NCBI GenBank assembly: GCA_038065475.1
Contig: JBBTQY010000010.1
Span: 72,415 to 134,491, forward strand
Reading direction: 5' to 3'
DNA: 62,077 nucleotides
Source of the DNA: Patescibacteria group bacterium
GTDB lineage: Bacteria > Patescibacteriota > Minisyncoccia > Ryanbacterales > GWA2-47-10b
Every line of letters starts with the position of its first letter. The stretch's first letter is position 1. The notes under the pieces are model-generated. The model worked only from the letters and a program-made list of their open reading frames with translations, was not told where the DNA came from and did not search any database. Both the position numbers and the translations under genes were made by a program. This document shows positions 17,153-28,580 of the stretch, piece by piece.

Positions 17153-17225
17153 GGGCCTGTAGCATAGTGGCAGTGCACCCGGTTTGCATCCGGGGTGTCG
17201 GAGTTCGATTCTCCGCAGGTCCACC
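17153..17225 (+). tRNA. tRNA-Ala (anticodon UGC)
   Basis: Hand-folded cloverleaf: acceptor GGGCCTG/CAGGTCC with the G3:U70 alanine identity pair, anticodon stem CCCGG/CCGGG with loop TTTGCAT, T arm CGGAG-TTCGATT-CTCCG, discriminator A. CCA is not fully encoded (CCG). Confidence 0.9.
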
Positions 17226-17272
17226 GTTTGTCTAGACAGGGAATATTGCCGAAAGCGTAAACATTTCCAGTC

Positions 17273-17315
17273 CAAGAAAGAAAAAGACCTCCCCGATACG
17301 ATGACCAGGGAGGTC
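17273..17315 (-). terminator. Intrinsic terminator of the element A ORF
   Basis: Minus strand: GACCTCCC-loop-GGGAGGTC followed by TTTTTCTTTCTT. Confidence 0.7.
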
Positions 17316-17357
17316 GTGATTGCCCGTGTTGCGTGAGTGGCTGAGACTTGTCGACAG

Positions 17358-17612
17358 TCAAGATTGAATGTTTTGGCGACGGCGACGGCGGATATCTTCA
17401 TGTCGACGAATCATTCGATCTGCAGATTCCCAACCCCTCTGCCCCGCCTCGTTGAAGAGCGCGCCAAAGAGAAATAGGAATGAGGCGATCGAGAACAAGA
17501 CTGCTGCTTCGCGGATTTGGGGATCTGTAGTCCAAATTGCGATACTGAGCCCTAAAAGTGTAACAAAGCTTAGTATGCGAACTGACAGAACTCGTTCCAT
17601 TATTTCCATCAT
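17358..17612 (-). CDS. Small membrane protein (84 aa, two TM helices, Arg-rich tail), unknown family
   Basis: Preceded by GGAGGA and a consensus promoter. Hydrophobic segments are LSFVTLLGLSIAIW and LFSIASFLFLFGALF. The C-terminus is RRHEDIRRRRRQ. Confidence 0.6.
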   Translation of the reverse strand: MMEIMERVLSVRILSFVTLLGLSIAIWTTDPQIREAAVLFSIASFLFLFGALFNEAGQRGWESADRMIRRHEDIRRRRRQNIQS

Positions 17613-17702
17613 AATTATACTTTTATCCTCCGTCCGGACTGGTCTCGAAGAAAATTTTCGAGAGCAATCCTCGAAGGAAATGATTTCCGAAGAACTAGGA
17701 AA

Positions 17703-17731
17703 ATTATATACTTAATGTAAAGTGTTGTCAA
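17703..17731 (-). promoter_or_regulatory. Perfect consensus sigma70 promoter (TTGACA - 17 nt - TATAAT) of element A
   Basis: The reverse complement of 17703-17731 is TTGACAACACTTTACATTAAGTATATAAT. Confidence 0.75.
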
Positions 17732-17778
17732 TATTTTGCCCTGAATCCTGGCTTGCGAAGTGCGTCCAATAGCCTATT

Positions 17779-17850
17779 CCAAGTTAGAGGTATATCTCGA
17801 CACGGTCCACCGTCAAGACTGGAAAGTTTGTCGAAAGCGTAAACTCTCCC
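17779..17850 (+). repeat. attP-like junction between elements A and B (P arm + tRNA-Ala 3' core + P' arm)
   Basis: CCAAGTTAGAGGTATATCTCGACAC is repeated at 18303-18328. The core GGTCCACCGT follows. Then ..GTCGAAAGCGTAAAC.. is shared with 17228-17266 directly after the tRNA. Confidence 0.7.
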
Positions 17851-17856
17851 CGCCTA

Positions 17857-17896
17857 GAAAAGAAAAAACCTCGCCGGCATAATAGTCGAAGAGGTT
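17857..17896 (-). terminator. Probable intrinsic terminator of the element B ORF
   Basis: Minus strand: AACCTC...GAGGTT stem followed by TTTTTTCTTTTC. Confidence 0.5.
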
Positions 17897-17918
17897 GTTG
17901 TTCCGAGGAGCTGTGTAA

Positions 17919-18131
17919 TTAGATCAGAGAGATTGCTTCTAGCAAAAACGCATGGAACTGTCCAGCGTCTTTTAGGATTTGAGCGGCGACTTGTTCATCA
18001 AGTCCTCTGCAATCTACTTCGATCCTCATGAGACAAGAATCAGCGTGTTGTCGTGCAGCTTCCGCATAGCGTCTGCGTTTCTCCTGTGTTCTTTGCTCTT
18101 CTTCTCGGATCCAGATTGCTTGAGTACTCAT
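17919..18131 (-). CDS. Small soluble helical protein (70 aa), unknown family
   Basis: The listed ORF 17919-18335 runs through its own promoter. The ATG at 18131 lies 4 nt after GGAGGA and gives MSTQAIWIREEEQRTQEKRRRY... Confidence 0.55.
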   Translation of the reverse strand: MSTQAIWIREEEQRTQEKRRRYAEAARQHADSCLMRIEVDCRGLDEQVAAQILKDAGQFHAFLLEAISLI

Positions 18132-18224
18132 AGTTTCCTCCGTCTGATTGACGGCCGACGAATTGTCAGACCGTAGGTGTCTGCCATCAATCTCGGAGGA
18201 AGGCGTTTCAAATGAACTAGCAAG

Positions 18225-18253
18225 ATTATATACTTGATATGAAGTTTCGTCAA
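18225..18253 (-). promoter_or_regulatory. Near-consensus sigma70 promoter (TTGACG - 17 nt - TATAAT) of element B
   Basis: The reverse complement of 18225-18253 is TTGACGAAACTTCATATCAAGTATATAAT. It is homologous to the element A promoter. Confidence 0.7.
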
Positions 18254-18302
18254 TCATTAGTGGATGTTGGTAAGAGCTCGCGAAGTACGCCCAAAACTCC
18301 AT

Positions 18303-18336
18303 CCCAAGTTCGAGGTATGTCTCGACACGGTCCACA
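18303..18336 (+). repeat. attR-like end of element B (P arm + truncated tRNA-Ala 3' core)
   Basis: CCAAGTTCGAGGTATGTCTCGACACGGTCCACA. It folds as a T-arm-like hairpin (TCGAG-GTATGT-CTCGA) followed by an acceptor-like strand. Confidence 0.65.
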
Positions 18337-18400
18337 CTTTTTATACATACCGGAAATGGTTCGATTGCGCCTATAATAAAGCCATCTTGATATATGGCTT

Positions 18401-26144: not shown

Positions 26145-28580
26145 ATGGATCCGCTTCTTGTAGGTATCATTGCGGCGGCAGTCGGACTCGTACTCATAGC
26201 TGCGTTGCTTTTTTATTTTTTGGTGATGCGTCCGCGTCGTGATGCGGAAGTTTCAGGCGCGCTCGATATGGTGCTCTACCAAGTGTTGATCCCGCACGAT
26301 GAAAACCCGCCCGCAGGTGAGGCAAAAAAGAAAGAACCAAAAGACATTATGGTCGCCCAAGAGCAGCTTTATGCGTCGCTTGCCGCGATCAAGACGAGCG
26401 GACTTCACCATATGCGCTTTGGTAGCCCCTCGATTACTTTTGAGGCAGCACTCCCGCATATCGGCGAAGAAGTTATTTTTTATGTAGCGGTACCGCGCTT
26501 CGCATCCCAATTTTTTGCCAACCAGCTCAATGCGTTTTTTCCCTCCGCAAAAATAAGCGAATCAAAAGATTATAATATTTTTCATCCAACGGGGACGAGC
26601 GTCGGTTCAACCGCCGTACTCAGTAAACACCCGCTTTTGTCGCTACGCACCTACAACGAGCTTGGTTCTGATCCGCTCGAGATTATTACAGGCGCATTTG
26701 CCAAGCTCAAAAAAGAAGGCGACGGCGCAGCCCTCCAAGTTGTCATACGGCCAGCGCGCGCCCCTCTCTATCAAAAGGGCAATGAAATCGCGCGTAAGAT
26801 GCGGTCCGGTGTTTCTTTTAAAGATGCCTTGGGAGGTCTTGGTAAAGAATTGCAAGATGCGGTGGCGACTGCAGGGGCAAAGCCCAAAGATGATAAAAAA
26901 CTTGAACAAAAACCAAAGGCGATTGATGAAGAGCTCGCAAAGCAGATTGAGACCAAAGCATCGCAGCCGGCTTTTGATGTGGTGATTCGTATCGTGGCGT
27001 CAGCGGCGACACCCACTGATGCTACTACTATTATGATGGGGCTTGAGGCTGCTTTTGAGCAGTTTAACAATCCGCAAGGCAATCAGCTCGCTTTTAGACG
27101 TATGGGCGGCAAAGCACTCGAAGACTTGCTCTACAGATTTTCTTTCCGTATGTTTGGCGAGTCTGAGAAAATGTATCTTTCGTCATCAGAGCTTGCGAGC
27201 CTTTTTCATCTGCCGTATTCAGGGTTTGCACAACCCAATGTTATGTATTTGAAGTCGCGCGAAGCGCCGCCTCCTACCAATTTGCCCGCGTCAGGCTTGC
27301 TGCTTGGCGATAGCGTATTTCGTGGCGAGTTGCGGCCAGTCCATATGGCTGATGACGATCGCAGACGTCATATGTATGTCATCGGTCAGACCGGCACCGG
27401 TAAATCAACTTTTCTCAAAGAGCTTGCACGTCAAGATATTTTGGCAGGCCGCGGTATTTGTTTTATCGATCCACATGGATCTGATGTTGAATCGCTTCTC
27501 GAATCAATCCCGCCTGAGCGTGAGCATGATGTGATTTATTTCAATCCGGGTGACATCGAGCGGCCCATGGGACTTAACTTTTTGGAGTACGATACGCGCT
27601 TCCCCGAGCAAAAATCTTTGATTGTTAACGAGCTCTTGGATATTTTCAATAAACTCTACGATATGAAGACGGCGGGTGGACCTATGTTTGAGCAATATTT
27701 CCGCAATGCGACCATGTTGGTTATGGAAGATCCGCAGTCAGGCAATACCTTGATGGAGGTAGGTCGCGTACTCGTCGACAAAGAGTTTCGTGATTACAAG
27801 CTTTCACGCTCGTCCAATATCGTGGTCAATAGTTTCTGGCAAAAGATAGCCGAGAAGGCAGGAGGCGAGTCAAGTCTTGCCAACATGGTGCCGTACATCA
27901 CTTCAAAGTTTGATACTTTTTTATCTAACGATATTATGCGCCCCATCATCGCCCAAGAAAAAAGCGCATTTAGTTTCCGTGAGGCTATGGATACGCAAAA
28001 GATCTTGCTCATCAATCTTTCCAAAGGACGCCTGGGCGAGCTCAACTCGTCACTCTTGGGGCTTATTATCGTAGGGCGCATATTGATCGCGGCACTCTCG
28101 CGTGTGGATATTGCCGATGAATCGGCGCGCAAAGATTTCTTTTGTTATATCGATGAGTTTCAAAATGTCACCACCAAGTCAATTTCCACCATTTTATCGG
28201 AAGCCCGCAAGTATCGGCTTTCACTCATTGTGGCGCATCAGTTTTTGGGGCAGTTAGAGGACGATATTAAAAAAGCCGTATTTGGTAACGTAGGCAGCAT
28301 GGTGTCATTTCGCGTCGGATCTGAAGACGGCGAATTTTTGGAAAAACAGTTTTCCCCAGTATTTACCGCACGCGATCTTATCAATATTGATAACCGAAAT
28401 GCCTATGTTAAGATGCTCATAGGCGGTCAGACCGCACGTGCGTTCAATATGCAGATGAAAGCTCCGCACAAAGGTGACTCTCTACAAAAAGAAAAAGTTA
28501 TCGGCATCTCACGTATTACTTACGGCCGTCCGCGCATCGAAGTGGAGGCAGAAATAAAACAACGCTACAAACATGCTTAA
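26145..28580 (+). CDS. Membrane-anchored TraD/TrwB/VirD4-like (type IV coupling protein-like) P-loop ATPase
   Basis: N-terminal TM helix and about 380 aa of unknown sequence. Then Walker A GQTGTGKST, FIDPHGS, Walker B CYIDEFQNV and LIVAHQFLGQL. Confidence 0.75.
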   Translation: MDPLLVGIIAAAVGLVLIAALLFYFLVMRPRRDAEVSGALDMVLYQVLIPHDENPPAGEAKKKEPKDIMVAQEQLYASLAAIKTSGLHHMRFGSPSITFEAALPHIGEEVIFYVAVPRFASQFFANQLNAFFPSAKISESKDYNIFHPTGTSVGSTAVLSKHPLLSLRTYNELGSDPLEIITGAFAKLKKEGDGAALQVVIRPARAPLYQKGNEIARKMRSGVSFKDALGGLGKELQDAVATAGAKPKDDKKLEQKPKAIDEELAKQIETKASQPAFDVVIRIVASAATPTDATTIMMGLEAAFEQFNNPQGNQLAFRRMGGKALEDLLYRFSFRMFGESEKMYLSSSELASLFHLPYSGFAQPNVMYLKSREAPPPTNLPASGLLLGDSVFRGELRPVHMADDDRRRHMYVIGQTGTGKSTFLKELARQDILAGRGICFIDPHGSDVESLLESIPPEREHDVIYFNPGDIERPMGLNFLEYDTRFPEQKSLIVNELLDIFNKLYDMKTAGGPMFEQYFRNATMLVMEDPQSGNTLMEVGRVLVDKEFRDYKLSRSSNIVVNSFWQKIAEKAGGESSLANMVPYITSKFDTFLSNDIMRPIIAQEKSAFSFREAMDTQKILLINLSKGRLGELNSSLLGLIIVGRILIAALSRVDIADESARKDFFCYIDEFQNVTTKSISTILSEARKYRLSLIVAHQFLGQLEDDIKKAVFGNVGSMVSFRVGSEDGEFLEKQFSPVFTARDLINIDNRNAYVKMLIGGQTARAFNMQMKAPHKGDSLQKEKVIGISRITYGRPRIEVEAEIKQRYKHA

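Follow-up and report, generated by a model that had tools for sequence, protein, structure and literature searches.

In an uncultured groundwater bacterium (Candidatus Ryanbacteria-like), two related insertions of about 0.55 kb each lie in tandem directly 3' of a tRNA-Ala gene, within the 62,077-nt stretch of DNA that was analysed here (the window). The tRNA-Ala(UGC) gene (17153..17225, plus strand; identified by ARAGORN and matched by the Rfam tRNA model with 63.2 bits) carries G3:U70 and does not encode CCA; we read it as the probable integration target, i.e., as an attB-derived sequence that would form the attL side of the array. The two units, A (586 bp) and B (525 bp), together make up an array of approximately 1.1 kb; each is self-contained and encodes one small orphan protein, and the last bases of the tRNA recur at the unit borders. 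Three copies of this tRNA-end repeat are present on the plus strand, all in register. Copy 1, GGTCCACCGT (17218..17227), comprises the acceptor 3' strand, the discriminator and 3 nt beyond; copy 2, again GGTCCACCGT (17804..17813), is at the centre of a putative attP-like junction; and copy 3, GGTCCAC (18329..18335), is on the putative attR side, where GGTCCACA at 18329-18336 represents a shorter third copy of the tRNA 3' end GGTCCAC(CGT). Identity shared with the tRNA thus extends over only 7-10 bp. Islander-type islands are delimited on one side by an intact tRNA gene and on the other by a displaced or duplicated tRNA 3' fragment in direct repeat; both features are found here.

The repeats are flanked by arms that are shared between the two units. 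Left arm A (17228..17285, P'-like), located downstream of the unit A terminator on the minus strand, is 79% identical to left arm B (17814..17867), as defined by repeat comparison and segment-wise alignment; as a repeat pair (17230-17285 and 17812-17867), identity is 75%. Right arm A (17751..17803, P-like) and right arm B (18276..18328) belong to a repeat pair (17751-17810 and 18276-18335) with 83% identity; approximately the last 27 nt of right arm A correspond to the T-arm and acceptor strand of a tRNA in diverged form, and right arm B contains this tRNA 3' half as well. The middle junction consists of a right arm, as on the attR side, followed by a left arm, as on the attL side, and the arms are constant ends of the units whatever adjoins them, with left arm A abutting the tRNA and right arm B abutting the native flank. 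The window contains exactly two copies of each arm and promoter pattern, as compared to 0.00-0.02 occurrences expected from shuffled sequences. The attL/attP-like/attR geometry proposed in the initial annotation therefore holds, given the three tRNA-end copies and the arrangement of the arms; the coordinates given there for the repeats were also confirmed, except that the CCAAGTT ahead of the third copy starts at 18304, not at 18303.

The same annotation had described the segment ahead of copies 2 and 3 as folding like a diverged T-arm and acceptor strand, and this description stands. Specifically, a different tRNA-Ala allele, which belongs to co-resident organisms in the same groundwater sample, agrees with the pseudo-tRNA of the right arms at 24-25 of 30 nt (score 12-14), as compared to a lower score of 6-8 for the resident tRNA-Ala; a better match to a foreign allele is what would be expected if the attP had co-evolved with another host. 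The idea that the right arm represents a complete but degenerate tRNA was rejected, as an Rfam search at E<=1 returned the real tRNA only. With regard to ends of the type found in MITEs, the array offers a 7-bp direct repeat and, as the sole inverted match found by eye, GTC(T/A)AGA versus TCTCGAC (6 of 7 nt, at unequal offsets); judged from sequence, target-site duplication would not explain why the right end contains a tRNA-like T-arm. An inverted match of 13 nt that links 17259-17271 with 18349-18361 was attributed to chance because unit B does not conserve it.

Comparison with related genomes places the array as an insertion. By blastn, homology to relatives stops at 17224-17225 and restarts at 18399, at the ROK gene; the sequence past copy 3 (ACTTTTTATAC...ATGGTTC) resembles the native tRNA flanks at relative loci L063 (AACTTTTTTTGT..ATGGTTA) and L047, and this native downstream flank of the tRNA-Ala gene (ACTTTTT...ATGGTT; 18336..18400, plus strand) continues directly into the sequence upstream of the ROK gene. 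These blastn boundaries and the recognisable native flank define the 1.1-kb array as a precise insertion relative to every relative examined, and blastn found the array itself to be absent from the interval in all of them. The tRNA gene is 100% identical over its whole length (73 nt) in relative L053, and its last 31 nt are exact in L052 and L054-L056, which were retrieved by that 31-mer. When the same 31-mer was used as an anchor in metagenome contigs, five loci were recovered, none with the arms. The tRNA-Ala-to-ROK interval differs in each relative examined, and contains, for example, a gene for a 1436-aa protein (L047/L054), a gene for an 810-aa protein (L048), a HIT gene (L062), or a PAS histidine-kinase gene (L060); L060 also carries a tRNA-end repeat scar of its own (ATTCTCCCCAGGTTCAC) approximately 60 nt past the tRNA. 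We take this variability to show that, in this lineage, the 3' end of tRNA-Ala(UGC) is a hotspot of recombination. An empty site, with tRNA-Ala followed directly by the ROK gene, had been anticipated but does not occur among the relatives, where other genes fill the interval, and a search for a same-species genome lacking the array found none; the six contigs on record with these genes all have the same arrangement. Since the large gene found between the tRNA and the ROK gene in relatives is absent here, the present arrangement requires one additional deletion or more; tblastn and blastn detected no remnants of this large gene in the array.

Each unit contains a single expression unit on the minus strand, as initially proposed, with a near-consensus promoter (12/12 or 11/12), a leader of approximately 85 nt, a GGAGGA ribosome-binding site, a small ORF and a terminator. 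Promoter A (17703..17731, minus strand) reads TTGACA-17-TATAAT with a consensus score of 12/12, and promoter B (18225..18253, minus strand) reads TTGACG-17-TATAAT with a score of 11/12. (Matches of 36 nt to the promoter-like sequence in contigs of runs X1 and X3 were dismissed, as they occur at the level that we estimate for chance matches to strong AT-rich promoters.) Leader A (approximately 84 nt; 17613..17696, minus strand) and leader B (approximately 87 nt; 18132..18218, minus strand) are both predicted to form long hairpins, of -27.4 kcal/mol (z -1.75) and -32.5 kcal/mol (z -2.8), respectively. In the predicted hairpin of leader A an anti-SD, UCCUUCG, is paired with CGGAGGA, and in that of leader B UUCCUCCG is paired with CGGAGGAA; both leaders contain the ribosome-binding site GGAGGA, and the anti-SD/SD helix appears in both predicted minimum-free-energy structures, with its pairs surviving via one-sided changes. 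According to this prediction, translation would thus stay locked for as long as the hairpin is neither opened nor processed. Terminator A (intrinsic; 17286..17315, minus strand) consists of a 12-bp stem followed by TTTTTCTTTC, whereas the weaker terminator B (17867..17896, minus strand) consists of an interrupted stem followed by UUUUCUUUUC; the folded 67-nt region of terminator B reaches -13.7 kcal/mol, as compared to -21.4 kcal/mol for the terminator A region, and the two terminators have the base of the stem and the U-tract in common. Phage morons, as described by Hendrix and colleagues, are likewise promoter-ORF-terminator units, which are found within prophages and have no att-like repeats. 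Like morons, the units described here are autonomous, are placed between resident genes, and comprise a single gene with a sigma-70 promoter and an intrinsic terminator of their own, but they differ from morons in that the array lies outside a prophage, among housekeeping neighbours, and carries att-like repeats.

Segment-wise global alignment of units A and B, with z-scores calculated from 300 dinucleotide shuffles, revealed mosaic homology. Similarity was found for the left arm (z 10.1), the terminator (3.5), the leader (4.5), the promoter (9.9), and the right arm (17.6), while the ORF plus 3'UTR (-0.5) and the spacer from the -35 box to the right arm (-1.0) were dissimilar; the promoter and leader start (17670-17732 and 18192-18254) show 76% identity as a repeat pair, and the conserved blocks are all approximately 79-83% identical. 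Homology of promoter, leader ends and arms, a further element of the initial annotation, is thus well supported (z 4.5-17.6 versus shuffles). The promoter, anti-SD, SD, terminator base and arms have been kept between units; the leader apex and the ORF have not. On sequence grounds, old divergence under constraint would fit this patchy conservation as well as payload swapping. The main rival explanation is a single insertion of a unit already bordered by the tRNA-end repeat, followed by unequal crossing-over between its two GGTCCAC(CGT) repeats, which would yield a tandem dimer whose copies diverged in all but the constrained motifs, with one ORF replaced or no longer recognisable. In-place duplication of one insertion produces the same geometry, and unequal attL x attR exchange predicts the exact middle junction observed (right arm, GGTCCACCGT, left arm); the similar identity across the conserved blocks, the centring of conservation on motifs (promoter hexamers, anti-SD/SD and terminator base) with a separately variable leader apex and ORF, and the fact that the arms were not found elsewhere are also consistent with this explanation. 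However, the ORF regions retain no residual DNA or protein similarity while the arms are approximately 80% identical. Duplication is doubtful on this point because selected proteins would be expected to retain similarity and neutral DNA would be expected to remain alignable unless the arms are strongly constrained; a junction-like contig elsewhere in the community (see below) also argues against it. Overall, we consider a duplication possible but rather unlikely.

ORF A (17358..17612, minus strand) encodes an 84-aa orphan protein with a pI of 11.3, two hydrophobic helices and an Arg-rich tail; ORF B (17919..18131, minus strand) encodes a 70-aa orphan protein with a pI of 5.6, which appears to be a soluble, acidic helical hairpin and is over-extended in public records, where it is given as 112 or 138 aa. 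Kyte-Doolittle windows above 1.6 support two hydrophobic helices in ORF A and none in ORF B. BLASTP produced no alignment between the two proteins at E<=100, which, along with the z-score of -0.5 for the ORF region, bears out the earlier statement that the cargo ORFs are not homologous. Scans of both ORFs with Pfam, PADLOC and PHROGs yielded nothing significant, and searches for homologues among 5.8 billion proteins (both ORFs) and 1.84 billion representatives (ORF B) returned self matches only, apart from one coiled-coil match with an E of 1e-4. Codon scores of both ORFs are below those of 98-100% of host gene segments, indicating atypical usage. AlphaFold produced confident models (pLDDT 96 and 93) of what are predicted to be generic helical hairpins, for which a Foldseek search against PDB gave no match at E<1. 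As no more than a weak guess, the proteins may have a selfish or competitive role, e.g., as a toxic membrane protein under tight control.

A small protein behind a structured leader raises the question of type I toxin-antitoxin-like loci, in which a toxic small protein would be encoded by an mRNA silenced by a 5' hairpin and an antisense RNA. Ldr/Rdl, Ibs/Sib and AapA/IsoA are tandem type I toxin-antitoxin repeats of approximately 0.5 kb with an RBS-occluding 5'UTR and a small (membrane) protein, and the array shares with them units of approximately 0.5 kb in tandem, a strong constitutive-type promoter, a structured 5'UTR over the RBS (with the SD predicted to be paired in both units, in hairpins of -27 to -32 kcal/mol) and, in ORF A, a predicted small basic two-helix membrane protein. 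By contrast, the two proteins are unrelated to each other, unlike those of known tandem type I loci, and ORF B is acidic and soluble; the borders are tRNA ends; no antisense RNA gene was identified, as the units lack a conserved plus-strand promoter-terminator pair (best plus-strand promoters 9/12, no plus-strand terminator within units); and matches in PADLOC, Pfam and PHROG are absent. A toxin-antitoxin function, which would be compatible with the other explanations considered here, is thus improbable in our assessment.

The array is not an assembly artefact; the possibility was rejected as two runs yielded independent contigs that cover it with no differences, its depth is similar to that of the flanks (14 versus 12.6 in X1 and 8.68 versus 9.54 in X2), and the longest exact repeat between units A and B is shorter than the assembler's 31-mer. 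Contigs that carry the locus are on record from runs ERR3858120 and ERR3858121. Mobility had been expected to show itself as polymorphism in copy number or cargo, but none exists among the six contigs on record with these genes, and no circle or excision joint was seen in the assembled contigs of four runs. Similarly, the anticipated further members of the family were not found: there is no other full member in the rest of the window, in related and other fetched loci, or in metagenome, viral, phage and plasmid sets. Searches with the arms at >=80% identity yielded no further full copy in the contigs of four source-study runs (approximately 4.2 Gb), an exact arm 22-mer had no matches in JGI/ENA metagenome contigs, three arm patterns had no matches in IMG/VR viral contigs, and blastn of the array against GenBank phages and PLSDB plasmids found none. 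An arm 17-mer with 36 matches in IMG/VR was discounted, as this is approximately the number estimated for chance and nhmmer detected no extended similarity. A single 480-nt contig from run X1 matches the middle junction over 50 nt (82% identity) and diverges beyond; this contig may be taken as the sole hint of a further copy. The absence of a recombinase, also claimed initially, was upheld, in that integrase, resolvase and transposase Pfam domains are unrecorded for all genes called in the window. The island-encoded tyrosine or serine integrase that forms part of Islander-type definitions is accordingly missing from the array, which has one small ORF per unit, without a Pfam match.

These observations also bear on an explanation that involves no mobility, under which the array would be a host pair of small co-regulated genes with regulatory conservation and the tRNA-like repeats would be old relics. 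While the conserved promoter, upstream region and SD-sequestering leader, the identical arrangement in six of six contigs on record, and a window without a recorded recombinase domain would all fit such a gene pair, the whole interval is missing in every relative, both ORFs are orphans when compared with 5.8 billion proteins (and, for ORF B, with 1.84 billion representatives as well), and their codon scores fall under those of 98-100% of host gene segments. In addition, conservation extends to left arm A and right arm B, even though neither has a partner promoter or terminator to regulate. We therefore regard a resident gene pair as having a low probability.

Short single-ORF units with unrelated orphan cargo and conserved junctions are also typical of integron gene cassettes and CALINs. 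An integron-like cassette array or CALIN, with junctions representing attC sites recombined as folded single strands, would account for units of approximately 0.5 kb with a single unrelated orphan ORF each and a conserved junction between them. However, single-stranded DNA of the junction folds no better than shuffled sequences (z -0.06 and +0.06 for the two strands), the GTTRRRY / RYYYAAC core motifs are absent from 17740-17870, no integron integrase (IntI) is present, the units carry promoters and terminators of their own, and the repeats are tRNA-derived; this explanation is very improbable.

Closer parallels are provided by CIMEs and Tycheposons. CIMEs of the ICESt1/ICESt3 family in Streptococcus (PMC5704250) retain attL and attR without integration or transfer genes, as does the array, whose attL/attR-type repeats include the end of the target tRNA; CIMEs also share with the array a tandem placement with an att site between neighbours. 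CIMEs are kilobases in size and visibly ICE/IME-derived, however, while the units described here are single-gene units of approximately 0.55 kb, for which no parent element, integrase or partner is known and mobilization is putative, and which are found in a CPR bacterium. Tycheposon arrays in Prochlorococcus islands (bioRxiv 10.1101/2020.12.28.424599) likewise have partial tRNAs that separate tandem elements, but Tycheposons encode a tyrosine recombinase and replication genes and span several kb, whereas the array carries neither gene and has one orphan ORF per unit.

Our preferred explanation, to which we assign slightly less than an even chance, is that the array represents two related, integrase-less, CIME-like mini-islands that accreted in tandem at the tRNA-Ala(UGC) hotspot. 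In its favour are the three in-register tRNA ends, the precise insertion, the variable interval in relatives, the closer match of the pseudo-tRNA to a foreign allele, the arms as constant unit ends, the non-homologous orphan cargo with atypical codon usage, and the 480-nt X1 contig. Points that count against it are the window without a recorded recombinase domain, the failure to find another full copy of the arms in the sets searched, the lack of occupancy polymorphism, circles or excision joints in six contigs and four runs, the short identity with the tRNA, the additional deletion, the patchy conservation and the small size of the units. An integrase of the tyrosine type, which is encoded elsewhere or has since been lost, would have acted in trans; the attP of a circular element (right arm - GGTCCAC - left arm) would have recombined with the GGTCCAC of the tRNA, and a second related element would then have entered the regenerated site, leaving an attP-like junction between the two units in the order tRNA-core-A-core-B-core-native flank. 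Accretion of CIMEs has precedent in the literature (reviewed in PMC5704250), and the logic of a regenerated target and a displaced fragment is set out in PMC4383910. Each unit would act as a stand-alone, moron-like minus-strand expression module with a near-consensus sigma-70 promoter; we infer this expression of the ORFs, as well as the recombination mechanism and the translational lock. The units thus look like integrase-less leftovers of site-specific integration, with no evidence pointing to an active gene-cassette system.

A broader, speculative explanation, which we rate as a long shot, is that units A and B belong to a wider family of sub-kb single-gene elements that have a promoter, a translational lock and pseudo-tRNA-Ala attP-like arms but no recombinase of their own, and that a host or phage integrase moves in trans between CPR tRNA-Ala genes with different orphan proteins as cargo; the 480-nt X1 contig would then be a third member. 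If true, this would constitute a minimal cassette system that uses tRNA att sites in place of attC sites, and the same arms with different cargo beside tRNA-Ala genes ending in ...CTCGCACGGTCCAC would be the sign of such a mobile family. CPR bacteria (Patescibacteria) have tiny genomes, and their gene gain is poorly understood. To our knowledge, 0.55 kb is far below the size of any tRNA-integrating element described; if the units are true trans-mobilized elements, they would be the smallest cargo-carrying elements of this type described and would represent an entry route for orphan small proteins into streamlined genomes. It is at least as likely that the units are fossil remnants, in which case the locus still documents a tRNA-Ala recombination hotspot in Ryanbacteria-like genomes, and provides a conserved leader predicted to sequester the RBS as well as the correction of an over-extended public gene call.

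The array comprises two tandem units, A (586 bp) and B (525 bp), between a tRNA-Ala(UGC) gene (17153-17225, + strand, called by both ARAGORN and Rfam; G3:U70 pair present, CCA not encoded) and a ROK kinase gene, in a Candidatus Ryanbacteria-like groundwater member of the candidate phyla radiation (CPR). Each unit consists of a left arm, terminator, ORF, leader, promoter and right arm, and copies of the tRNA 3' end bound the units. The last bases of tRNA-Ala, GGTCCACCGT, form copy 1 of this core repeat, recur exactly at 17804-17813 (copy 2) and are found as GGTCCACA at 18329-18336 (copy 3). While the core 7-mer by itself is about as frequent in the window as expected by chance (7 occurrences vs. 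7.6 expected), the three copies stand in register within longer homologous blocks, i.e., the left arms (17230-17285 in A, 17812-17867 in B), the right arms (17751-17810 and 18276-18335) and the promoter with the leader start (17670-17732 and 18192-18254); each of these patterns is present exactly twice across the 62 kb, vs. 0.00-0.02 occurrences expected. Segment-wise alignment of the two units against dinucleotide shuffles yielded z-scores of 10.1 for the left arm, 3.5 for the terminator, 4.5 for the leader, 9.9 for the promoter and 17.6 for the right arm, vs. -0.5 for the ORF plus 3'UTR and -1.0 for the spacer between the -35 box and the right arm; the ORF A and ORF B proteins showed no detectable similarity. 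The exact repeats, shared segments and non-homologous cargo described in the initial annotation thus hold up, and its coordinates were correct overall apart from a one-base slip.

The whole array is spanned, with zero differences, by contigs of two independent sequencing runs of the source study, its depth matches the flanking depth (14 vs. 12.6 in run X1; 8.68 vs. 9.54 in run X2), and gene order is the same in the six contigs on record that carry it. The spanning runs and flank-equal depth exclude an assembly artefact, a possibility raised in the initial annotation; the locus is real, tidy and somewhat unusual. The X2 assembly breaks within left arm A, with contigs stopping at 17275 and beginning at 17250, and the X1 assembly within the tRNA, not left arm A; a branch in the assembly graph caused by a variant, or low depth, may account for these breaks. 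Low-depth contigs of run X3 carry two C>A variants, at 17347 (3'UTR of unit A) and at 18063 (a synonymous third-position change in ORF B, GCG>GCT, Ala23), each observed once and without weight for selection.

In both units the predicted expression signals and the ORF read on the minus strand. Promoter A (TTGACA-17-TATAAT) matches 12/12 consensus positions and promoter B (TTGACG-17-TATAAT) 11/12; of the terminators, that of A is strong and that of B weaker, with stem base and U-tract common to both. The minimum-free-energy fold of each leader (approx. 84 nt in A, 87 nt in B) is a single long hairpin (-27.4 and -32.5 kcal/mol; z -1.75 and -2.8) that pairs CGGAGGA(A) with a conserved anti-SD (UCCUUCG / UUCCUCCG). 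The basal helices are maintained between A and B, with one-sided changes that retain pairing; their apical parts vary in both sequence and length, yet still extend the helix. These folds suggest that the primary transcript would carry a translational lock. ORF A encodes 84 aa (pI 11.3), with two hydrophobic helices followed by an Arg-rich tail, and ORF B 70 aa (pI 5.6), predicted to form a soluble acidic helical hairpin. A type I toxin-like function is an attractive reading for the small membrane protein with its predicted lock, but an antisense gene is not evident. Public gene calls for ORF B (138 aa, from a GTG at 18335, or 112 aa; 17919-18335, - strand) cross its own consensus promoter, leader and right arm; because of its homology with unit A, a 70-aa ORF starting at 18131, behind a GGAGGA site, is indicated as the true one. 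For both ORFs the annotated frame has the best codon score of six and GC by codon position is similar to that of host genes; their scores (0.05 and -0.08) fall short of 98-100% of true gene segments (0.27 +/- 0.11) and exceed 96-99% of non-coding frames. Both probably encode proteins, of foreign or recent origin. Neither ORF had a family match in Pfam, PADLOC or PHROG or a homologue among 5.8 billion proteins, ORF B had none among 1.84 billion representatives, and Foldseek returned nothing specific for either.

The neighbourhood is housekeeping (rpoB, rpoC, ftsK, recA, ddl, a DUF5671 gene, tRNA-Ala, the array, ROK kinase, dut, serS), and this synteny is kept in relatives, with a different tRNA-Ala to ROK interval in each. 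The interval holds a gene for a 1436-aa secreted protein in loci L047 and L054, an 810-aa gene in L048, L052 and L056, a signal-peptide protein gene in L063 (whose contig stops short of ROK), a HIT gene in L062 and a PAS histidine-kinase gene in L060 and L061. Large, fast-evolving genes with a signal-peptide-like N-terminus occupy L047 7113-11423, L048 7324-9756, L041 1-1243 and L063 4454-5308; the 1436-aa and 810-aa proteins have only an approx. 120-aa C-terminal domain in common (57% identity). In the window, no remnant of this gene was found. Homology between window and relatives ends at 17224-17225 and restarts at 18399, and directly right of core copy 3 lies ACTTTTTATAC...ATGGTTC, which is similar to the tRNA flank native to L063 (AACTTTTTTTGT...ATGGTTA) and to that of L047; these observations argue that the 1.1-kb array is a precise insertion between the GGTCCAC of the tRNA and the original flank, apparently accompanied by deletion of the neighbouring large gene. 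In L060 (8832-8985; also in L061), a relative at 60% identity, a second copy of its own tRNA-Ala 3' end, ATTCTCCCCAGGTTCAC, lies approx. 60 nt past the gene, which we interpret as the scar of a separate integration-type event at this tRNA.

As the initial annotation had noted, a diverged T arm plus acceptor strand precedes core copies 2 and 3; it spans approx. 27 nt. The Rfam tRNA model (E<=1) did not recognize the arms. The pseudo-tRNA aligns better with another allele, ...GCGAGTTCGATTCTCGCACGGTCCAC, carried by co-resident organisms of the same sample (24-25/30 nt, score 12-14), than with the resident tRNA (score 6-8), as would be expected if an attP had evolved alongside the tRNA of another host. 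A simple target-site duplication leaves this better fit to a foreign allele unexplained. The array geometry (B-O-P', P-O-P', P-O-B') matches that predicted for tandem site-specific integration at a tRNA gene, as pictured for accretion of cis-mobilizable elements (PMC5704250) and for Prochlorococcus tycheposons (bioRxiv 10.1101/2020.12.28.424599); an integron-type reading failed the defining tests. We tentatively favour, at slightly under even confidence, two related integrase-less mini-elements, because the arms are conserved as unit ends regardless of the adjoining sequence, the pseudo-tRNA looks foreign, the tRNA-Ala site is a hotspot and the cargo is orphan with atypical codon usage. A single insertion followed by unequal crossing-over between its two flanking repeats is a less probable but serious alternative, as it yields a structure identical to that observed, and old duplicates under constraint fit the patchy, motif-centred conservation with two separate variable segments. 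That the units are a purely host-regulatory pair is less likely and we consider it improbable. Among integrase-less tRNA-flanked islands, the locus most likely represents a new variant of very small size, in a CPR genome.

Searches for additional full copies of the arms were negative in the rest of the window, in the related loci and other loci retrieved (nhmmer), in metagenome contigs (exact 22-mer), in IMG/VR viral contigs (36 matches of one pattern, about the estimated chance number), in GenBank phages and PLSDB plasmids, and in approx. 4.2 Gb of contigs from four source-study runs at >=80% identity. One partial exception is a 480-nt X1 contig (depth 15.4 vs. 14 for this genome), absent from X2-X4, whose first 50 nt match 17781-17830 (pseudo-tRNA, core and left-arm junction) ungapped, with 9 differences (82% identity), and which continues with a different, weakly left-arm-like sequence (CCGTGAATGACAAATTCTCTTCCCCAAGAA...). 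Its similarity to the pseudo-tRNA is too high for a canonical tRNA; by hand count, the resident tRNA shows 14 mismatches within just the 23 nt to the left of the core. This contig may represent a third junction of the same kind; outside it and the present locus, nothing supports the proposal that promoter-equipped cassettes exchange their payload.

In agreement with the initial annotation, which saw no recombinase, none of the genes called in the window has an integrase, resolvase or transposase family on record. Approx. 8 kb from the array, an 811-aa protein (26145-28580, + strand) with DUF8128 and a weak TrwB/AAA match resembles a coupling-protein ATPase. Finally, a terminator-like hairpin (18379-18400, + strand) lies immediately 5' of the start codon of ROK; the T-run corresponds to the first ROK codons (MFFLFD), which are present in relatives too.
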